From a virus, in the UHGV virus genome UHGV-0141872: a stretch of 12,686 nucleotides of DNA. One strand, written 5' to 3'. Shown piece after piece: positions 3,828-12,680 of this stretch. Numbering within the stretch: the first letter of the stretch is position 1; the number at the start of each line of letters is the position of its first letter. The notes beneath the pieces are model-generated. The model saw only the letters and a list, made by a program, of their open reading frames with translations. It had not been told where the DNA came from and did not search any database. A program made the translations under genes and the position numbers.

Positions 3828-4205
3828 TCAGCGTTTCAACTGAAAATGAGGTCCGTCTTTCAGTGTTTTCCAGTCGCCGCCCCATTCGATGGCAGTTCCC
3901 AGCTCTGCGGCAGCCTGCTTAAATGCCTGCGCGATTTTCTCGTACAGAGGCCAGTCCCATGACACCTGGCTGCCAATGTAGGCCACAACATCCACCGCAT
4001 CACCGGTCAGGTGGCGGCTGTTCATGGTCTGGCTTTTCCCTTCCGCGACCAGCTGTTTCTGGCGTTCTTTCGTGCGCAGCCCTTCCGTAATACCGAAATC
4101 AACCTCCGTCAGTTCAAGGGCGCGGCGAACGACAGCAACCAGCTGTGGTCTGACACCCTCCAGATTTTTCTCGCTCCGGCGGCTGAATCTGAATTTACCC
4201 GACAT
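3828..4205 (-). CDS. Endolysin, peptidase M15 family (VanY-like L-alanyl-D-glutamate / D-Ala-D-Ala peptidase type)
   Basis: Zn-peptidase M15 motifs SRHLTGDAVDV and DGPHFQL. ATG at 4205 preceded by GAGGTG; the ORF-track start at 4211 is GTG and overlaps the upstream stop. Follows two membrane-protein genes with overlapping stops and starts. Confidence 0.8.
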   Translation of the reverse strand: MSGKFRFSRRSEKNLEGVRPQLVAVVRRALELTEVDFGITEGLRTKERQKQLVAEGKSQTMNSRHLTGDAVDVVAYIGSQVSWDWPLYEKIAQAFKQAAAELGTAIEWGGDWKTLKDGPHFQLKR

Positions 4206-4207
4206 AT

Positions 4208-4483
4208 TCACCTCAACAATGGAAAGATTCTTGTGACGTTCCCGCGTGCGCGTATCACCAGCACGCAGAACAGCAGATTAAAAAACACCTCCAGCCAGCC
4301 CGTTGCTAACGGGCGACCACACAGATAGCTGAGGGGGGCAAAGGCATACAGCAGCATCAGCAGCCAGGCCAGCCATGACATCAGCGGTTTGTGTCTGGAG
4401 TCACGACGACGATAAAAAAAGAGCGTCAGCACGATAACCGTGCATAACGCCACATTCAGCAATCCGGGAAGGTTACTTAACAT
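4208..4483 (-). CDS. Small membrane protein, 91 aa, about 3 predicted TM segments; holin/antiholin-like lysis accessory protein
   Basis: Strong SD GGAGGAGG 5 nt before ATG at 4483. Start overlaps the stop of the upstream putative holin and its own stop overlaps the endolysin start (translational coupling). Hydrophobic segments LLNVALCTVIVLTLFF, LMSWLAWLLMLLYAFAPLSYL, WLEVFFNLLFCVLVI. Confidence 0.55.
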   Translation of the reverse strand: MLSNLPGLLNVALCTVIVLTLFFYRRRDSRHKPLMSWLAWLLMLLYAFAPLSYLCGRPLATGWLEVFFNLLFCVLVIRARGNVTRIFPLLR

Positions 4484-4865
4484 TACCGCCTCCTCCGCCC
4501 CGCAGGCGCGAGAACAGGCCAGACACCAGTGATGCGATATCCTGCTGGTGGATGAATGACATAATCTTTACAGACACCAGCGATACCAGCACCGCACACA
4601 ATGCATCTGCAGATGTGCCGTCATAACCAGTTTTTGATGCCACCCAGGCTGAAAGCAAACGCGCACCCAGCACGCCGACGATAAATGACACAAGAAAATG
4701 TGCCGCCACCCGCCATGCTGAAAGCGCCTGCGGTATCGTTGCAACAAACAACGCCCCCGCAAATGCGCCAAACACAATCCCGAAATCCGTTCCGGTAAAC
4801 AGCCCGAAAACAGTCGCCCCACCGAGCGCAGCAGCTGTGCCGGAACCGGATAAGGGTTCAGACAT
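4473..4865 (-). CDS. Putative holin / lysis membrane protein, 130 aa, Gly-rich TM segments
   Basis: ATG at 4865 preceded by CAGGAGAAAAAGT (SD); the ORF-track start at 4922 is GTG inside a terminator hairpin and is unlikely. Multiple hydrophobic Gly/Ala-rich segments; first gene of the lysis cassette. Holin call is by position and hydropathy only. Confidence 0.5.
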   Translation of the reverse strand: MSEPLSGSGTAAALGGATVFGLFTGTDFGIVFGAFAGALFVATIPQALSAWRVAAHFLVSFIVGVLGARLLSAWVASKTGYDGTSADALCAVLVSLVSVKIMSFIHQQDIASLVSGLFSRLRGGGGGNVK

Positions 4866-4908
4866 ACTTTTTCTCCTGTAAATTAAAAAAGGCCACCAGC
4901 GGCCCCCC

Positions 4909-4957
4909 AAAAAAAACACCACACCAAAGACATCCGCAGATGCCTTTGTGTGGTGTT
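4909..4957 (-). terminator. Strong rho-independent terminator about 45 nt upstream of the holin start
   Basis: Minus strand reads AACACCACACAAAGG-catctgcggatg-TCTTTGGTGTGGTGTT followed by TTTTTTTT (about 14-bp stem with one bulge, U8 tract). A weaker GGCC...GGCC hairpin plus T-run follows at 4885-4904. Confidence 0.6.
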
Positions 4958-4994
4958 ATTCAGTTTTGATATGTATGGGACGTGGAGCGAATAC

Positions 4995-5049
4995 AAAAAA
5001 GGCCTGCCGGAGCAGACCTCAAAAAAAAGCCAGCACTGGGGGGGCTGGC
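4995..5049 (-). terminator. Tandem pair of rho-independent terminator hairpins
   Basis: Minus strand: GCCAGC-cccccagt-GCTGGC + TTTTTTTT (5021-5049), then GGUCUGC-uccg-GCAGGCC + TTTTTTGT (4995-5018). Confidence 0.5.
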
Positions 5050-5665
5050 AGGAAAGCAAACGTGCTTATCGGATTTTCAAAAAAAGAATATTACCTTTGC
5101 GTTAATCATCCTGGCCTTCCGAAGCACATTTCTCAACTGAAAACGGGTATTTTCAGATTTCGTTATCTGTCATATTGACAGGCCCCACTTCTCCGGGGTA
5201 GTGAAGTAAGTGGCGTTTGCTTCCTGTAAATGCCCGAGAGTTATCCATGATCTCTTGTATTAGGCATTCCTCAGTGGACTAATTTCGGAGTTATCATCCT
5301 GTTCAATTTCATCCAGGATCCCCTACTTAATAAGTTCATCATTCTTCAGGTGGCAGTTTCTTTCAGCCAGCCGTGCAAGCAACAGCACATTCTTGTCGGG
5401 CTCAGAATAACTCCTGCAAATGCAACAATGATGACCGTAGCACCAATAACCTTGAGCTGCCCGCATCCGTAAAAAGCGAAGGCCCCAAATTACCAGAATA
5501 AAACTGAGCAGATATCCGACCTTCGTTACCGCATGGACTTCATTGTCTCATACACCAGGAGCAGCAAATTGCAAAGGATGAAGCACGCCCCATGAAGATT
5601 CTCCCAAAACTATAATTGTAAAAACCAAAGTAGAGGAAGCGAACACTTGCAAACCCGAACGTTGA

Positions 5666-5693
5666 ATAAAAAAAACCGCCTGGAGCGGCGGTT
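5666..5693 (-). terminator. Rho-independent terminator downstream of the tRNA pair
   Basis: Minus strand: AACCGCC-gctcca-GGCGGTT followed by TTTTTTTTATT. Confidence 0.5.
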
Positions 5694-6046
5694 AATGGCA
5701 TATAAAAACGCATGATTTAATTGTATTCAGAAGTGTCGGGTACCTCCCGAAGCATCCAGCCCCACATGGATACTGTGGTTTCCCGCTAAACCGACTCTTT
5801 AAACCACCCTCGCACTGAGGAACACCTCTGTAGTGTTTTTACAACACCGGGATAGTGCATCATCAGCCCTGCCAGGAAATACTAAATCTCCACCGATAAT
5901 GCACTATTCCATTGTTGTAAAAAATCAGCACTGAGGCTATAACCGACCTCAAACAATAGCCTGAGGACCAAAGATGTCTTAAAACAACCTGCCCCCACGT
6001 AAAAAAACACGCCAGTGCTGTATAATTCGTGTTGCCAGAATAATGA

Positions 6047-6121
<75 letters not shown>

Positions 6122-6124
6122 ATA

Positions 6125-6200
<76 letters not shown>

Positions 6201-6365: not shown

Positions 6366-7412
6366 CTAACTATTGTTTCTTATTTCATCAAACGTTTGAT
6401 TAAACCTATCCTTTTCCAGCTCTACGCCAATAGCTCTACGTCCCAGAGAGAGCGCAGCCTTTATAGTCGCCCCCGATCCCATAAAAAAGTCTGCAACCAA
6501 TTCCCCCGGACGACTGCTGGCTATAATTATCTGCCGCAACATATCCGCTGGTTTCTCACACGGATGTTTACCCGGATAATACTGCACAGGTTTGTGCGCC
6601 CAGACATCCGTATAAGGAACGGCAGCCGATACGGAAAAGTAACGCCGCAGGGATTTGTACTCCTCTAGCAGGCTGGCATATTGTCGGTTCAGTTCGCTGT
6701 ATGTGCTGACCAGCTGGTGGTGTGGCTGTTCCAGTTCACCGCGCTGATGTTTTTCTGCTGCAACACGCGCAAACAACGCCTGCAGTTTTCTGTAATCAAC
6801 CTCATTCGGCAACTGCCACTGACTGGCACCAAACCAGTGTGAAGCCATGTTTTTCTTTCCGGTGGCTTCCGCTATCTGTTTTGATGTTATCCCCAGTGAT
6901 ACACGCGCATCACGAAAGTAAGAAATCAGCGGGGCCATGACGTGCTGTTTAAGCTTGCGCCCCTGTGCCGCATAGCCGTCATTTTTGGGCTGGTATGGCC
7001 CCTGATAATGTTCTGCAAACAGAATGCGTTCTGTTGCCGGGAAATACGCCCGCAGGCTTTCCTTGTTGCATCCGTTCCAGCGTCCGGACGGCTTCGCCCA
7101 GATAATGTGGTTCAGCACATTAAAGCGCTCACGCATCATGATTTCGATATCAGATGCCAGGCGATGACCACAGAACAGGTAGAGACTTCCGGCAGGTTTC
7201 AGTACCCGCCAGAACTGCGCCAGACACTGGTCCAGCCAATTCAGGTAATCATCGTCGCCCCTCCACTGGTTATCCCAGCCTTCGGGTTTCACTTTAAAGT
7301 ATGGAGGGTCTGTGACTATCAAATCGACAGAGTTTTCCGGTAAGGTCTGGATAAATTCCAGGCAATCAGCGTTGATTAACTCACAACTGGATATTTTTAC
7401 AGTGTAAACCAT
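6366..7412 (-). CDS. DNA amino-methyltransferase (N6-adenine or N4-cytosine), beta-class, orphan (no restriction enzyme partner in the window)
   Basis: Catalytic motif IV DPPY (LIVTDPPYF) near the N-terminus and AdoMet-binding motif I FxGxG (ADFFMGSGAT) near the C-terminus, the beta-class motif order. 348 aa; ATG at 7412. Confidence 0.85.
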   Translation of the reverse strand: MVYTVKISSCELINADCLEFIQTLPENSVDLIVTDPPYFKVKPEGWDNQWRGDDDYLNWLDQCLAQFWRVLKPAGSLYLFCGHRLASDIEIMMRERFNVLNHIIWAKPSGRWNGCNKESLRAYFPATERILFAEHYQGPYQPKNDGYAAQGRKLKQHVMAPLISYFRDARVSLGITSKQIAEATGKKNMASHWFGASQWQLPNEVDYRKLQALFARVAAEKHQRGELEQPHHQLVSTYSELNRQYASLLEEYKSLRRYFSVSAAVPYTDVWAHKPVQYYPGKHPCEKPADMLRQIIIASSRPGELVADFFMGSGATIKAALSLGRRAIGVELEKDRFNQTFDEIRNNS

Positions 7413-7549
7413 AGATCAATAAGCACTTCTCTGATAGGCTCATTCCGCTTTTGCGCAAAGCAGATGGGCCTGAGGTTTGCTTGTGACCCCAACGCATGAG
7501 CAGATGGCTGGCAGGTGCCGCTAACACCCACCAGCCGCCCATCACCACA

Positions 7550-7576
7550 AATTAAAAAGCCTTCACTGTGGAAGGC
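7550..7576 (-). terminator. Rho-independent terminator overlapping the stop of the 65-aa ORF
   Basis: Minus strand: GCCTTC-cacagt-GAAGGC followed by TTTTTAATTT. Confidence 0.45.
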
Positions 7577-7760
7577 GTCTGTAACAACCGAACTGATAAT
7601 CTGCCAGGCCCGCCATAACAAGCTGAGTCAGTATTAACTGGCAGCGCTCGCGTGAAAGGTAAGTATTCTGCGCAATCTCCCCGACAGTCGCCGGTTCGGT
7701 GACGCTTAATTCATTAAACACCACTCTGGCGGTTTCGGTCATATCCTGCTGTTTTAGCAT
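7563..7760 (-). CDS. Small hypothetical protein, 65 aa, possibly winged-helix/HTH-like (MLKQQDMTETARVVFNELSVTEPATVGEIAQNTYLSRERCQLILTQLVMAGLADYQFGCYRRLPQ)
   Basis: ATG at 7760 preceded by AAAAGGGAAAAAGAC; the longer ORF-track form starts with GTG at 7853 and has no SD. The HTH-like call is from the pattern TVGEIAQNTYLSRERCQLILTQL only. Confidence 0.4.
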   Translation of the reverse strand: MLKQQDMTETARVVFNELSVTEPATVGEIAQNTYLSRERCQLILTQLVMAGLADYQFGCYRRLPQ

Positions 7761-7881
7761 GTCTTTTTCCCTTTTCTGGTTAACGTGACATACCAATAAC
7801 TCTTGTCGAAAAAGCCAGCAAGCAGAAAGACCAGTATTAATAACTACCAGCACATTTAACGCACTGCGCTACTTTGCGGGC

Positions 7882-7906
7882 ACAAAAAACCCGCTCAGAG
7901 GCGGGG
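7882..7906 (-). terminator. Rho-independent terminator downstream of the CPBP-protease gene
   Basis: Minus strand: CCCGC-ctctga-GCGGG followed by TTTTTTGTG. Confidence 0.5.
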
Positions 7907-8047
7907 GGCAAGCTATGCGGAGAAATAACAACTCTTAACAGCATACCTGATTTTTTACGTACGTAAATGCTTTGCCGTGCATATTTTTCATGCAAATGTC
8001 ACATCCTGCTATTTTTCAGTGTTATAAATTTAAAGTCATAGAAAAAA

Positions 8048-8866
8048 TCAATTATGTTTTAAGAATGGATAGGTAAAGAATAACAAGTGACACAGATTCA
8101 AACCAAAATGGAAAAGGGTGGCAACCCACAAGCGCCCACTCCACATCCATGACAATCCATACACAACACCAGATAACGTGGCAAATAATACAAGTAAAGC
8201 ACCACCTGAATAGTGAAAAAAACCAAACAACAAAGCCGCCACAATTAACGCAACCAATGGAGACGTCACTTCTGATAGCCGTGATTGAATATACCCTCTA
8301 AATAATGACTCCTCAGCCAGAGACACAAAAAATAAATTAGCCAATATAAACTCTGGCAACCACTCAGGAAAATGAATCTCTGGCTTTAACCCACCCAAAA
8401 AAACAGCCAAAAACAGGATAAGAGGAACAGAGAGCAACAGAGTCCCCCACTTCCACAAAGACACTTCTGATTTCACTTCTTTTTTAAACAAAGAAGCTGT
8501 ACACAGGACTAACAAAAATGGCACCAGTGCTTTATCAAAATTAAAATACATTGTATAGGGAGTGCTTTGAGGCCCGACAGTAACAGACTTTAGCACTACA
8601 GGATTGTGAAACCCTGGCCATAAATGGAAAGATAATGCTATGGCTGATAAAACTATGCCAGCTTCATATATAGATTTAGCCCAGGCGTTATATTTCCAGT
8701 TGAGCTTCAAAATAATAAAAAAAACGATTGTAGCAACAAAAAACAACACCGACCAATCAATAATATCATTAAGCACAGCCAGGACAACTGACACCGTCAA
8801 TAATGAAAAAGCCACAACCTTATGCCAACTGAGAGTTGACAGTGACAGTGCTAACACAATCCACAT
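8048..8866 (-). CDS. CPBP-family intramembrane metalloprotease (CAAX protease / bacteriocin-processing, Abi-domain family), 272 aa, polytopic membrane protein
   Basis: All three CPBP signature motifs are present: EExxxR (AEESLFRG), FxxxH (FGFFHY), HxxxN (HFGLN), in a protein with about 7-8 hydrophobic segments. ATG at 8866 preceded by AAAGGAGCGCTT. The gene is strongly AT-rich relative to the rest of the prophage. Confidence 0.75.
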   Translation of the reverse strand: MWIVLALSLSTLSWHKVVAFSLLTVSVVLAVLNDIIDWSVLFFVATIVFFIILKLNWKYNAWAKSIYEAGIVLSAIALSFHLWPGFHNPVVLKSVTVGPQSTPYTMYFNFDKALVPFLLVLCTASLFKKEVKSEVSLWKWGTLLLSVPLILFLAVFLGGLKPEIHFPEWLPEFILANLFFVSLAEESLFRGYIQSRLSEVTSPLVALIVAALLFGFFHYSGGALLVLFATLSGVVYGLSWMWSGRLWVATLFHFGLNLCHLLFFTYPFLKHN

Positions 8867-8896
8867 AAGCGCTCCTTTTATTTAATGATGAAGATT

Positions 8897-8926
8897 GATT
8901 ATCAATATTTTCAATTCACCTGGCAA
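8897..8926 (-). promoter_or_regulatory. Candidate sigma70 promoter upstream of the CPBP gene (moron promoter, or the phage late promoter PR')
   Basis: Minus strand: TTGCCA (-35), 17-nt spacer, GATAAT (-10), about 30 nt upstream of the CPBP start and about 100 nt downstream of the Q stop. AT-rich context, so chance matches are possible. Confidence 0.35.
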
Positions 8927-9019
8927 CATTTTGTTTACCTTCCACAAAATTCATGACCACCAAAAAATAAACACATTAATTATAAACACAGAAAACATAA
9001 CCCTCATCACTATATATCC

Positions 9020-9394
9020 CTACCGCATATCCATATCTAGCCGGACATTCAGAGCCATAAGCATTCCTTCAATAATACCTTCCGCTTTATAAAGTCTTTT
9101 ACCAATAAGACCATCAGAACATCTATGCTTACGTGCAAGAGCCATAAATGTCATTCCACCTACGTAATAATCCACCAACAAATCGTGCAAATACTGATTA
9201 TTCTTGTTTAATCGTGCCATACAGCCACAAATTATCATGGCATCATCATCAGAACACTGAGGACGTGATTTCACTTTAGTCGGGATTAATCCTTTAAAAC
9301 CAGCAGCTATCGAGGGCCATGTTACATCCTCATGATTATTTGCTGCCCATGCTCCCCACCGCTCCATAACCAGCTGAATATCACGCAACATCAT
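9020..9394 (-). CDS. Late-gene antitermination protein Q (phage 82 / QuuD-type), 124 aa
   Basis: [62 protein letters not shown]... closely matches my recollection of E. coli DLP12 QuuD / phage 82 Q. ATG-ATG start preceded by AAGAGGATG. Confidence 0.8.
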
Positions 9395-9476
9395 TACATC
9401 CTCTTATTACGAATATATTCACACCCAGTCGCCCACCGCAAATAGGCAGACCACGCACAATATTGATTCCATCAAA

Positions 9477-9752
9477 CTACTCGTCGTCTATGAGTAGTCC
9501 GGCATGCGTCAGCGCATCCAGTGGCGCTTTCAACAGGTTGTCCAGGTCACGACGGCGCTTATCCGGTGGCTCCACAATAATCCTGATCGCCAGCTTTTCG
9601 GACAGGTTTAATTTCAGTCGCTGCTGGCTAACAACTAGCGCTACATCACGGCAATAACGCTTTCCTGCTTCCGAGATGAAATACGTATTGCCATGACGTC
9701 GCCAGTAGGTATTCACCGTCGGCGGGTAAGGCAAAACAAACTCTATACGCAT
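9477..9752 (-). CDS. rusA: RusA-like Holliday junction resolvase, truncated at 91 aa by an in-frame TAG; the frame continues to 9381 encoding the expected RusA C-terminus
   Basis: RRRDLDNL and LIDD motifs (RusA catalytic Asp cluster). The TAG at 9479..9477 falls where E. coli RusA has Gln (CAG); downstream in-frame FDGINIVRGLPICGGRLGVNI aligns with RusA [21 protein letters not shown]. ATG at 9752 preceded by AAAGAGGTTACTG. Confidence 0.7.
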   Translation of the reverse strand: MRIEFVLPYPPTVNTYWRRHGNTYFISEAGKRYCRDVALVVSQQRLKLNLSEKLAIRIIVEPPDKRRRDLDNLLKAPLDALTHAGLLIDDE

Positions 9753-9764
9753 CAGTAACCTCTT

Positions 9765-10814
9765 TTACCCAAGCACGCCGGTTGCAAAGGCGTGATCAAG
9801 AAAACCAAAAATTAAATCAACCTGGGAACCATGCTTTTCTTCGAACGCCTGCGGATCTGCATGAAGTTCGTTGTGATGTTCCCGACACAGCGGCAACGTA
9901 AAAATATCGTGGGCTTTTGTCCCCATCCCGCCCTGACCGTGACCAATCAGGTGATGGGGATCGTCTGCTGGCTTACCACAACACGTACACGGCTGTGTCT
10001 TCACCCAGCGCGTATATTTCTCATTTACCCAACGGCGACGTTTAGGCCGCCTCATGAAAGATTCCGGTGACTCCGGATCAACGGTGATGCTGACCACCGT
10101 CTTTTCCTGTAGTGGGTTTTGTTGCTGGTGGGCGTGATATGGCTGCACAAGATTTTTTGTGCGCTGCTTCAGTACGCTGGTGGCTGTCTGCTCTCCCGGT
10201 ATGATTTCGCTTTCGCGGTACACCGAGCGGATTTTTTCCGCACGCAATCCCAGAGAACGACGTAATACTGCCTCCGGAAGCGCGTCCGCCACTTGATTGC
10301 AGACCGCCCACCAAGATAATTCAGCTAGCGATAACTCTCGCTCCTGTGTGCCATTCATTGCATGACGGATGACGTCAATCATCCATGCTGACAAGTTTTG
10401 GTGAGCTAGTAGCCCGAGTGATTCGGAGGTCTGGTCACGCAACTGGTTGTCGCAGTGCCAGCACAACACCATCGCGCCAGAGTCATAACGGTGAATGACG
10501 GTTTCACTGTGGTGATAATCGCCGTGTGGCCACTGGCAGGATTTAACATGGCGCAGTAACCAGTGAGACAATGCGCCAGCGCCACCAGCAGCACGAATCA
10601 CTCGTTCGTCGCTGAAAAATGACAGTAATGATTTATCCTCCGCCAGCGGCTGGCGAACGGCAGGGACGACTCCGGACGGCAGACCGAGCATGCTTTTCGG
10701 TTCCGGCTCCACCAGCACTCGAGGATTGTGAAATACCTTCATGGATTCACGACCTGGCTTAAGGACCACCAGCCCGAGTTCCGGTACCAGAACAGGTCGA
10801 AGTAATACCCGCAC
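9765..10814 (-). CDS. DUF968-like lambdoid nin-region protein (YdfU-like) with C-terminal HNH-like Cys/His motif, 349 aa
   Basis: C-terminal CTCCGKPADDPHHLIGHG...LCREHHNELH zinc-finger/HNH-like pattern. Size and position (just upstream of rusA and Q) match my recollection of E. coli Qin YdfU. GTG start at 10814 preceded by GGAGGTAAC; an internal ATG (MKVFHN...) is an alternative. Confidence 0.5.
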   Translation of the reverse strand: MRVLLRPVLVPELGLVVLKPGRESMKVFHNPRVLVEPEPKSMLGLPSGVVPAVRQPLAEDKSLLSFFSDERVIRAAGGAGALSHWLLRHVKSCQWPHGDYHHSETVIHRYDSGAMVLCWHCDNQLRDQTSESLGLLAHQNLSAWMIDVIRHAMNGTQERELSLAELSWWAVCNQVADALPEAVLRRSLGLRAEKIRSVYRESEIIPGEQTATSVLKQRTKNLVQPYHAHQQQNPLQEKTVVSITVDPESPESFMRRPKRRRWVNEKYTRWVKTQPCTCCGKPADDPHHLIGHGQGGMGTKAHDIFTLPLCREHHNELHADPQAFEEKHGSQVDLIFGFLDHAFATGVLG

Positions 10815-11628: not shown

Positions 11629-11784
11629 TTACTCCTCAGGTTCGTAAGCTGTGAAGACAGCGACCTCCGTCTGGCCGGTTCAGATTCGTACCTCGCAGAG
11701 GTCTTTCCTCGTTACCAGTGCCGTCACTATGACGGTTAAACAGATGACGATCAGGGCGATTAACATCGCCTTTTGCTGCTTCAT
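11629..11784 (-). pseudogene. hokD: hok-family type I toxin gene (HokD/RelF-like) interrupted by an in-frame TGA at codon 35
   Basis: Translation MKQQKAMLIALIVICLTVIVTALVTRKDLCEVRI*TGQTEVAVFTAYEPEE matches my recollection of E. coli HokD (51 aa) except that the Arg codon is TGA (11682..11680). SD AAGGAG lies 9 nt upstream of ATG at 11784. Confidence 0.6.
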
Positions 11785-11900
11785 AGCCTGCTTCTCCTTG
11801 CCTTTCGGCACGTAAGAGGCTAACCTACATGTGTCTAGCATGAAATTGGCCTCAGATTAATGTTAAGCGTCTTGCAGGACGCGTAATGTTAACTGGGGCT
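11785..11900. promoter_or_regulatory. hok mRNA leader / mok-overlap region; expected location of the antisense Sok RNA and its promoter (plus strand)
   Basis: Inferred from the canonical hok/sok architecture (antisense RNA complementary to the leader of the toxin mRNA). An in-frame upstream ATG (MLDTCRLASYVPKGKEKQA...) is present in the leader. Exact Sok boundaries cannot be set from sequence alone. Confidence 0.3.
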
Positions 11901-11995
11901 TTTCTCTATCTGCCGTTGGTGTTCATGCCCGAGGCAGATAGCCTCAAGCACCCGCAGCCATTCTACTTAACTACCGCTACCTCGCCAATATGAAA

Positions 11996-12384: not shown

Positions 12385-12646
12385 TTATTCAGCAAAGCAC
12401 TTCCTGGCATGCTCTTCCACGAACGCCGCTACGGTTTCCGGCGCTTCAAGCGGCGGGAAGTGGTTTACGCCTTTCAGGATTTTCAGCTCCGCGCCGCCGC
12501 CCAGCACCTGCTGCAGCGCCGCTGCAAACGGAAGCGGGTTTGGCGCGTCATTTTCGCCCTGCAGAATAAGCGCTGGCGCGGTGATAGCATCATACTGATC
12601 GGCCATTTCATGATTCAGAAACGCAGCGGCATTGGCCTGCATCGAG
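12385..12646 (-). CDS. Alpha/beta-hydrolase fold protein, C-terminal fragment (N-terminus lies beyond the contig end); probably a host gene
   Basis: C-terminal translation ...ITAPALILQGENDAPNPLPFAAALQQVLGGGAELKILKGVNHFPPLEAPE... is typical of the cap/His region of alpha/beta hydrolases. GC content is clearly higher than in the prophage. The first 10 residues of the ORF-track protein (MGSEMCIRDS) are translated adapter. Confidence 0.6.
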
Positions 12647-12680
12647 CTGTCTCTTATACACATCTCCGAGCCCACGAGAC
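12647..12680 (+). other. Illumina Nextera (Tn5 mosaic end) adapter, a sequencing/assembly artifact at the contig end
   Basis: Exact match to CTGTCTCTTATACACATCTCCGAGCCCACGAGAC, followed by 6 nt that would be the start of an index. Confidence 0.95.

Follow-up and report, generated by a model that had tools for sequence, protein, structure and literature searches.

A CPBP endopeptidase gene next to antiterminator Q

Why should a lambdoid prophage carry a gene for a membrane-embedded protease directly downstream of its antiterminator gene, and what could such a gene do there? The question is raised by UHGV virus genome UHGV-0141872, from which a stretch of 12,686 nucleotides (referred to here as the window) was analysed. 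The antiterminator Q gene of the window (9020–9394, minus strand) encodes a 124-aa protein of the Q21/Q933W family (PF06530, E = 4.5e-51), with a weak sequence match (E = 1.2e-7) to the solved Q21 structures 6jnx and 6p18. It is followed by a gene for a CPBP (Rce1-like, or "Abi") glutamate intramembrane endopeptidase (8048–8866, minus strand), a 272-aa protein with about eight predicted membrane helices. A Shine-Dalgarno sequence, AAGGAG, can be read at 8872–8877 (minus strand), 5 nt before the ATG. The features described in an initial annotation of this locus were all recovered in place, on the minus strand.

That annotation had described a complete CPBP protease with three intact motifs, and the HMM search bore this out: residues 169–258 matched PF02517 with 70 bits against a cut-off of 22.4 (E = 2.1e-19), and the EExxxR (E185, E186, R190), FxxxH (F214, H218) and HxxxN (H253, N257) motifs are all present. 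These are the motifs by which Pei and Grishin reportedly defined the active type II CAAX protease family. Across 30 homologues, down to 49% identity, no variation occurs at E185, E186, R190, F214, H218 or H253, and at least 90% retain N257. The protein also matched phrog_13291 along its full length (E = 1.8e-176), and a search of NCBIfam gave only sub-threshold matches of the myxosortase type. Its AlphaFold model (pLDDT 90.9, pTM 0.89) was compared with the PDB using Foldseek, and the top two fold matches were the solved CPBP-family proteins SpdC/LyrA of S. aureus (6u0o_A, probability 1.00, TM 0.48–0.52) and Rce1 of M. maripaludis (4cad, 0.92); the remaining matches were noise. Identity to Rce1 and SpdC is only 14–16%, and a profile search of PDB sequences with the protein returned no match. 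In the subfamily of the window protein, in contrast to these two, an additional conserved segment (HLxPGFHN...MYFNFDKALVPF), modelled as a beta-hairpin, separates helix 3 from helix 4. SpdC is a non-catalytic scaffold, whereas all catalytic residues are retained in the window protein. The HMM match, the motifs and the predicted fold all mark the protein as a genuine member of the CPBP family. The dN/dS ratio among prophage copies (0.11–0.26) indicates that the gene is under purifying selection, and this ratio, together with residue conservation, is what points to the predicted proteolytic activity.

Identity with Z1787 and distribution in E. coli

Sequence comparison identified the CPBP gene as the orthologue of Z1787 of E. 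coli O157:H7 EDL933, which belongs to prophage CP-933N (O-island 50). The primers and recombineering arms published for Z1787 match the window at 8829–8849, 8355–8374, 8864–8897 and 8019–8056; both qPCR primers do so with 0 mismatches, and the arms bracket the gene exactly at its ATG and its stop codon (PMC2654852). At the DNA level the CPBP gene of the window shares about 96.6% identity with the O157:H7 copies, which occupy the same position after Q, but the downstream backbone of the O157:H7 strain TW14359 differs, in that its winged-helix (wHTH) gene is frameshifted, an HTH gene replaces the methylase gene, and Ile, Arg and Arg tRNAs are present. The gene was therefore already known, Z1787 being annotated and its RefSeq name being CPBP endopeptidase. 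The initial annotation, which was aware of no characterised role for such a protein in this position, is likewise outdated on that point, since Jandu et al. 2009 (PMC2654852) deleted and complemented Z1787. No other study of Z1787 came up in a literature search, and this one left aside membrane topology, substrate, phage resistance and regulatory context.

The CPBP gene is carried by 572 of 5426 complete E. coli genomes (about 10%), all of these matches spanning at least 80% of the gene, and the carriers include O157:H7, O145, O111, O103 and O121 strains. One further copy is interrupted by IS1. A tblastn search of 50,697 deposited phage genomes with the CPBP protein gave no match, and the known members of the family all come from prophages (PHROGs, IMG/VR and bacterial genomes). 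Homologues of the protein are also widespread in non-pathogenic Enterobacterales. Chromosomal homologues (about 50% identity) stand alone in unrelated non-phage contexts. No conserved partner gene was found beside the chromosomal homologues of Enterobacter, Salmonella, Hafnia, Pseudomonas and a metagenome contig, all of whose contexts differ.

The published work on Z1787 raises the alternative that the CPBP protein is a virulence accessory, which processes or helps to export a bacterial factor that lets EHEC block the IFN-gamma-induced phosphorylation of STAT-1 in epithelial cells. In the work of Jandu et al. 2009 (PMC2654852), Z1787 was up 2.66-fold with HEp-2 cells, its deletion mutant was without STAT-1 inhibition, complementation from a plasmid was measured, and HB101 expressing the gene showed the effect in part. 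Among the matches listed, moreover, the gene is enriched in STEC/EHEC backgrounds, and in the prophage of strain RM8082 it lies between Q and stx1d. However, the paper took Z1787 as a possibly released protease, whereas a polytopic inner-membrane protease could not itself reach host cells; the STAT-1 effect comes from a single study with few replicates (n = 1–4; PMC2654852); and the kan insertion in Z1787 sits between Q and the probable late promoter described below, so that polar effects are possible. A 2012 follow-up by the same group leaves Z1787 unmentioned, the gene was down, not up, in adhered cells in a 2020 transcriptome (PMC7649339), and the presence of homologues across non-pathogenic Enterobacterales also speaks against a role in virulence. 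We regard this explanation as quite improbable. Although about one in ten complete E. coli genomes carries Z1787, its assigned function comes from a single small study, and the direct mechanism proposed there is implausible.

Optional cargo in the interval downstream of Q

The CPBP gene has a GC content of 39.1% and the spacer between it and Q one of 29.4%, as compared with 49.5% (6366–7955) and 52.5% (9395–10814) on the two sides. The initial annotation had stated that the GC content of the gene is far below that of the flanking phage genes; this is correct with respect to the outer flanks, but the adjoining Q gene shares the low value (41.3%, GC3 35%). Because Q is also low in GC, the low-GC module extends over 7956–9394, and one of the supposed flanking phage genes is not normal in GC. 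The two genes almost always occur together: 571 E. coli genomes have this Q allele and 572 have the CPBP gene, and Q lies 146–295 nt upstream of a CPBP relative in 41 of 42 viral contigs. The association spans two unrelated Q families.

Homology of the window to phiP27 and Stx2 phages begins at 7955 and takes in the terminator and the wHTH gene that follow the CPBP gene. We compared phages with Q proteins of the same family (PF06530) that are 45–99% identical to that of the window, and found that the interval between Q and the conserved sequence is filled by the CPBP gene, an NmpC-type porin gene, an ORF6N gene, a gene for a 151-aa protein or a homologue of PD-Lambda-1 (L22 of phiP27), or by nothing, in which case Q lies about 40 nt from the conserved block. 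In a survey of 70 scanned IMG/VR loci and 10 already identified ones, the interval held CPBP in 16, a porin (PF00267) in 46, ORF6N in 15 and another gene in 1, and was truncated in 2; the conserved block was present downstream in 65 of the 70 scanned loci. In E. coli, 2166 genomes have a match to this block. On this comparison the interval is a true cargo hotspot, as the initial annotation had proposed, and the CPBP gene is optional cargo between Q and the conserved block of a phiP27-like lambdoid prophage.

Two of the alternative occupants are informative. The NmpC/Lc porin of DLP12 and PA-2, a classic envelope protein of lysogenic conversion, occupies the same interval in front of the same block, next to Q proteins of the same family (83–85% identical); it differs from the CPBP protein in being an unrelated beta-barrel of the outer membrane, and its gene lies on the opposite strand. 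L22 of phiP27 matches PD-Lambda-1 (Vassallo et al. 2022; PADLOC PDLC03976) with E = 2e-89, and is likewise unrelated to the CPBP protein, having a T5orf172/MUG113 nuclease-like domain.

The constant location of the CPBP gene between Q and the lysis genes could also mean that the protein serves phage lysis, as a membrane protease of the delayed-early or late phase that tunes lysis or release by processing a holin, a spanin or another envelope target. Its association with two unrelated Q families would fit such a role, as would two phages (L014 and L015) in which it follows a promoter-terminator pair directly 3' of Q, with the holin gene about 400 nt further downstream. In contrast, phiP27, 1720a-02 and VG48B2 have the same holin/endolysin set without a CPBP gene, with unrelated cargo in its place; the gene of the window is 3 kb from the holin genes; and homologues exist at non-phage chromosomal sites. 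We therefore consider a role in lysis very unlikely, and treat the gene as optional cargo in what follows.

A probable late cassette downstream of the CPBP gene

The conserved block opens with P2, a promoter-like element (TTTACG-16-TATGCT) at 7940–7967 (minus strand). It follows the cargo in TW14359, VG48B2, phiP27, L010, L012 and RM8082, in most of which a T-A-T-n-n-T -10 element stands in the same register; a weaker version follows the cargo in Stx2a_1447, and in the cargo-less phages 1720a-02, Stx2_14040 and PhiR5_1 the position of P2 is about 40 nt after the Q stop codon, with CAGTAT as the aligned hexamer. Next comes a leader, GTTAAGAGTTGTTATTTC... (7906–7939, minus strand), which is nearly invariant among phages whose Q proteins are just 45–84% identical and which may act as a Q-binding or pause element or as a small RNA. 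It contains GTTA repeated 10 bp apart; this repeat and an AAGAGT element are conserved in the block, although their register relative to the predicted start misfits the lambda and phage 21 layouts that were checked. The leader runs into an intrinsic terminator (7884–7905, minus strand; hairpin 7905–7890), CCCGC-CTCTGA-GCGGG followed by T6, which was recovered by a terminator scan and by folding and is kept with varying loops in nine phages, including ones without a CPBP gene. A near-identical terminator stands directly after the promoter 3' of the lambda-type Q in L014. Leader and terminator together folded no better than shuffled sequences (z -0.8), and Rfam at a permissive threshold gave no RNA family in 7400–9450.

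In cargo-less relatives the block is the sole sequence between Q and the terminator, and its promoter-like hexamers and hairpin are conserved. This arrangement suggests that this Q family probably uses P2 as its late promoter pR', that the terminator is probably tR', ending the CPBP transcripts as well, and that 7884–7967 is most likely a Q-dependent late cassette (pR'-tR'). The initial annotation had assigned the CPBP gene its own intrinsic terminator, but the only terminator before the next gene lies inside sequence common to phages without the CPBP gene and so is not its own; a terminator belonging to the cargo was rejected, as the homology boundaries place it in the backbone. On the definition of Hendrix and colleagues, a moron is a piece of cargo in a phage genome that forms an autonomous unit. 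The annotation of the gene as a moron accordingly holds for its presence or absence among relatives and its distinct GC content, but not for a terminator of its own.

The position of cargo upstream of a probable late promoter matters for the reading of "pR' region" diversity and of Shiga-toxin expression. An insertion in this interval may lie outside the control of Q, and its deletion may interfere with the late promoter.

Putative promoter P1 and expression in the lysogen

The spacer between Q and the CPBP gene (153 nt, 29% GC) contains the candidate sigma-70 promoter of the initial annotation, TTGCCA-17-GATAAT, here called P1 (8898–8926, minus strand). With 10 of 12 consensus positions it is the best promoter-like site within 7400–9450, although the seven such sites in this region are not above the number in shuffled sequences (5.2 ± 2.6). 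Its -10 hexamer is conserved in TW14359 and OkiPb01695, and in the divergent modules of L010 and L012 other promoter-like hexamers were found, by eye only, at a similar distance. We infer that P1 is the lysogen promoter of the CPBP gene, on the strength of a consensus match in AT-rich DNA, where such matches are common. Transcripts of Z1787 were detected in uninduced cultures by RT-PCR and microarray (Jandu 2009, PMC2654852), and a 2020 STEC transcriptome likewise showed expression of the gene in uninduced cultures (PMC7649339). In the lysogen, transcription of the CPBP gene would start at a sigma-70 promoter of its own, P1, and stop at the terminator of the phage (7884–7905), and after induction the gene would additionally be read through from the early operon.

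P1 could instead be the true pR' of this Q allele, in which case the CPBP gene would lie inside the pR'-tR' interval and be made constitutively in lysogens as a longer form of the short pR' transcript, of which lambda 6S RNA and StxS are examples. P1 stands directly after Q, where pR' is expected, and no site in the region matches the promoter consensus better; lysogens show constitutive pR' activity (PMC7547250; bioRxiv 10.1101/651190); no terminator lies between P1 and 7905; and Q and the P1 spacer are co-inherited. However, VG48B2, whose Q is 84% identical, has unrelated sequence after Q and yet shares the 7940–7967 element and the leader, and in cargo-less phages of this Q family that element is the only one between Q and the terminator. 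No pause element or Q-binding repeat is recognisable after P1. We judge this alternative unlikely and retain P2 as the probable pR' and P1 as the putative lysogen promoter.

In L014, a phage with a lambda-type Q, a clear promoter-terminator pair stands upstream of the CPBP gene, which is itself followed directly by the holin gene. There the CPBP gene looks like a late gene and not a lysogen gene, which counts against expression in the lysogen.

Function of the CPBP protein

Taken with moderate confidence, the best explanation is that an intact, Z1787-orthologous CPBP protease is selected optional cargo in front of a probable late cassette, presumably transcribed from P1 in the lysogen, where it would alter the envelope. 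The protein would insert in the inner membrane and cleave a membrane-embedded peptide or protein, and this cleavage would change a property of the lysogen's envelope.

Of the possible benefits, protection of the lysogen is the most likely, because the alternative occupants of the interval are a porin and a homologue of the PD-Lambda-1 defence gene; protection would come through exclusion of an incoming phage or immunity to a membrane-active toxin, and we propose it tentatively, as a possibility of less than even weight. A model for such a role is provided by the Abi-type bacteriocin immunity proteins of Gram-positive bacteria (PlnI, SkkI and relatives), which are membrane-embedded and belong to the same Pfam family. 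Kjos et al. reportedly found in 2010 that the immunity conferred by this family depends on the same conserved motifs. The immunity genes of Gram-positive bacteria adjoin their bacteriocin genes; in the window and in the contexts of nine homologues, the CPBP gene was found to have no bacteriocin, toxin or small-peptide gene beside it. When the CPBP protein was compared with PADLOC-DB 2.0.0, one of the defence resources named in the initial annotation, no family matched at E ≤ 1, nor is a phage or toxin phenotype on record for the gene. Since the chromosomal homologues stand alone in unrelated non-phage contexts, a general envelope function can be argued in place of a dedicated defence role, and the only experimental phenotype, which concerns host-cell signalling and not protection, also counts against the protective reading. 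If the role is protective, the reported effect on host STAT-1 would be indirect.

A more specific version, which we consider possible but rather doubtful, is that the CPBP protein is a single-gene protection determinant of prophages in Gram-negative bacteria, cleaving a phage injection protein or a membrane-active toxin. If this were true, the misnamed "Abi" family would gain a real anti-phage or immunity role in Enterobacteria, and the interval between Q and the late promoter, with its porin and PD-Lambda-1 homologue, would be a defence hotspot of lambdoid phages. That the CPBP gene is allelic with a conversion porin and a validated defence gene, and so may protect the lysogen, is a concrete hypothesis that is cheap to examine.

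The 65-aa gene downstream of the terminator

The first gene after the terminator (7563–7760, minus strand) encodes a 65-aa wHTH-like protein, a homologue of phiP27 L23 (phrog_331, E = 1.4e-37). Its RefSeq name is "TrmB family", and its Pfam match to TrmB is weak and below the cut-off (E = 0.0068); a PADLOC match (E = 0.0035) is at chance level. The gene accompanies the methylase gene in phiP27 and in Stx2 phages without a CPBP gene, and in the latter it lies directly after Q. No wHTH gene follows the CPBP gene in RM8082, L012 and L014, either in the annotation or in gene calls, and in TW14359 it is frameshifted while the CPBP gene is intact. The suggestion of the initial annotation that this protein is a partner or regulator of the CPBP protein was therefore rejected, the wHTH gene being a backbone gene that occurs independently of the CPBP gene.

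A complete CPBP protease gene downstream of Q

The window is part of a lambdoid prophage in which the relevant genes all lie on the minus strand; among deposited phages, the Stx2e phage phiP27 has the nearest backbone, and the nearest genomes come from E. coli. In transcription order, antiterminator Q (9020–9394; PF06530) is followed by a 272-aa ORF (8048–8866), which matched the Rce1-like/CPBP family (PF02517) well over threshold. The initial annotation had described this product as a complete CPBP intramembrane protease, and the description held: the EExxxR, FxxxH and HxxxN motifs are present, and E185, E186, R190, F214, H218 and H253 were invariant, and N257 nearly so, when 30 homologues with identities as low as 49% were aligned. 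An AlphaFold model based on this alignment was confident (pLDDT 90.9), and of the solved structures, only S. aureus SpdC and archaeal Rce1, both of the CPBP family, matched it meaningfully. The dN/dS values among prophage copies were 0.11–0.26.

In this subfamily, the stretch that lies between helices 3 and 4 is also strongly conserved (residues ~81–120, window 8510–8620; H81, G85, N88, S101, Y107, N109, D111 and K112). This segment, MYFNFDKALVPF, was modelled as a short beta-hairpin and may be a substrate-binding element. We know of no description of it for Rce1 or SpdC.

Orthology with Z1787 of E. coli O157:H7

The exact protein sequence is already on record from E. coli. It is named “CPBP family intramembrane glutamic endopeptidase” in RefSeq and matches phrog_13291 over its full length, and the gene is present in 572 of 5426 complete E. 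coli genomes (95–99% identical in 568 of the 572). The feature is genuine but of an ordinary kind, and its annotation predates this work. A 2020 STEC transcriptome paper (PMC7649339) points to Jandu et al. 2009 (PMC2654852), whose qPCR primers for Z1787 match the window without mismatch at 8829–8849 and 8355–8374, and whose lambda-Red homology arms map to 8864–8897 and 8019–8056, bracketing the gene precisely at its start and stop codons. These matches identify the CPBP gene as orthologous to EDL933 Z1787, which lies in prophage CP-933N. In that study (PMC2654852), the Z1787 transcript was found in uninduced cultures and rose 2.66-fold with HEp-2 cells, the deletion mutant lost STAT-1 inhibition, expression in HB101 had a partial effect, and the product was viewed as possibly a released protease. 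This view is at odds with a polytopic protein of the inner membrane. A literature search for Z1787 found no study besides Jandu et al. 2009, and the virulence claim amounts to one indirect observation.

The interval between Q and a conserved block is a cargo hotspot

Among IMG/VR viral contigs with a CPBP relative, a Q gene lay 146–295 nt upstream in 41 of 42 (PF06530 type in 40, lambda-type in one). We then surveyed the slot between Q and the conserved block in the best 80 viral loci by Q similarity, a ranked rather than an unbiased sample: it held a CPBP gene in 16, an NmpC-type porin gene (PF00267, opposite strand) in 46, an ORF6N-domain gene in 15 and a gene for a 151-aa protein in one, the other two being truncated contigs. 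The NmpC-type porin is a classic conversion porin. In phiP27, the same slot carries L22 (L002 6577–7806), a strong homologue of PD-Lambda-1, an anti-phage defence protein (PADLOC E 2e-89). The Stx1d prophage of E. coli RM8082 (L025 2200–4341) has the order Q, CPBP gene, a weakened form of the conserved block described below, and stxA1d/stxB1d, so that the cargo falls within what is commonly termed the stx “pR′ region”. Together, these loci bear out the earlier idea of a hotspot after Q, with the CPBP gene allelic to a conversion porin and a defence gene. It is only this company that suggests a protective role for the CPBP protein; a defence-database search with the protein (PADLOC) gave no support for such a role. 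L22 is a “GIY-YIG/unknown” protein with a T5orf172/MUG113 domain, and the RM8082 CPBP gene shares 88.8% DNA identity with that of the window.

Q-linked CPBP copies diverge to 59–62% identity, and their Q proteins remain 79–81% identical. In many Enterobacterales, and outside this order too, homologues sharing ~50% identity occur as lone chromosomal genes with unrelated neighbourhoods. In Hafnia, for instance, the gene has the gal operon on one side and, on the other, an ABC ATPase gene that adjoins the molybdate-transport genes. Capture of such a host gene, with its function preserved, is thus the probable origin of the phage gene. Among the chromosomal contexts examined, no conserved partner gene pointed to a substrate.

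Backbone, cargo and transcription signals

Homology to phiP27 and many Stx2 phages spans 7400–7955, which includes a terminator (a hairpin followed by T6, 7905–7884), a 65-aa ORF (7563–7760) and the start of the methylase gene; the CPBP gene lies outside it. L22 separates Q from this shared block in phiP27, and in phages 1720a-02, Stx2_14040 and PhiR5_1 the block begins ~40 nt after Q, with no gene between. The 65-aa gene consequently belongs to the backbone. O157:H7 TW14359 has a frameshifted copy of it together with an intact CPBP gene, and it was not seen after the CPBP gene in RM8082 or the compared loci L012 and L014 (annotation or gene calls). These observations argue against the proposals that this winged-helix-like gene is a CPBP partner or regulator and that the terminator is the CPBP gene's own. 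The GC content is 39.1% in the CPBP gene and 29.4% in the spacer to Q, versus ~50% further out. The low GC noted earlier therefore stands for the CPBP gene, but not as a contrast with Q (41.3%), and the low-GC unit is 7956–9394. The proposed promoter in the spacer, P1 (TTGCCA-17-GATAAT, 8926–8898), is the best promoter-like site of the region, although such sites are not over-represented around it.

We aligned the block at 7884–7967 across nine phages and the divergent loci L010, L012 and RM8082. It consists of a promoter-like pair, TTTACG-16-TATnnT (7967–7940), whose T-A-T-n-n-T pattern is in register in most loci with varying middle bases; a nearly invariant leader, GTTAAGAGTGGTTAC...; and a GC hairpin with a T run. 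Q-dependent cassettes have the order Q, promoter, pause site, terminator and late genes (bioRxiv 10.1101/651190). In cargo-less phages, a late promoter situated between Q and the terminator could lie only in this block, and E. coli VG48B2, with a Q 84% identical to that of the window and unrelated sequence after it, shares the block. On these grounds of layout, 7884–7967 quite probably represents pR′–tR′, the Q-dependent late promoter and its terminator, and we take P1 as the cargo's own promoter. No Q-binding or pause element could be placed convincingly in the block. In L014/L015, which have a lambda-type Q, the order is Q, TTGATT-18-TATGCT, a strong terminator, the CPBP gene and holin, so that the CPBP gene can precede the cassette or follow it. 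In VG48B2 (L005 4870–4990), a near-consensus promoter (TTGACC-17/18-TATATT) directly follows Q, with a strong terminator ~100 nt past it, then the ORF6N gene and the usual block; this layout amounts to two promoter–terminator units in series.

In the best-supported reading, an active glutamate intramembrane protease would be made in the lysogen from P1, with its transcript ending at the phage's terminator; after induction, the gene would be read through from the early operon. The protease would act on a membrane-embedded substrate and thereby alter the lysogen envelope. Promoter consensus, the reported expression of the orthologue and the layout underlie the first three steps, and family knowledge the last.

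Other features of the prophage

A complete hok/sok type I toxin–antitoxin locus (11680–11953; sok, 115 bits in Rfam) marks the early end of the prophage fragment and comes first in transcription order. Its Hok-like ORF is listed at 53 aa, and the Hok match begins at an internal Met. A DUF968 gene separates it from rusA (Holliday-junction resolvase, 9381–9752), where codon 92 of 123 (9477–9479) is an in-frame TAG versus CAG in two E. coli relatives, so that the resolvase is truncated in this prophage. The DNA methyltransferase gene (6366–7412) and genes for tRNA-Thr(TGT) and tRNA-Gly(TCC) (6047–6200) come after the 65-aa gene in transcription order; related Stx phages have Ile/Met-Arg-Arg sets at the tRNA position. 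The 1.1-kb stretch from the tRNA genes to the holin (4923–6046), where phiP27 instead has stx2e, contains only short ORFs (≤76 aa) and is non-coding in appearance. Six E. coli genomes contain it with ~93% conservation and have no annotated feature there, and Rfam gave only weak, sub-threshold hairpin matches in it (5825–5936). Two holin genes and an M15 endolysin gene (3828–4922) follow, and ORF 1372–1968 is, in our reading, a likely candidate for the small terminase subunit. The right end of the window carries an Illumina Nextera adapter, CTGTCTCTTATACACATCTCCGAGCCCACGAGAC (12647–12680), whose translation, “MCIRDS”, opens an alpha/beta-hydrolase ORF fragment (12385–12675); the contig end is thus an assembly artefact rather than biology.
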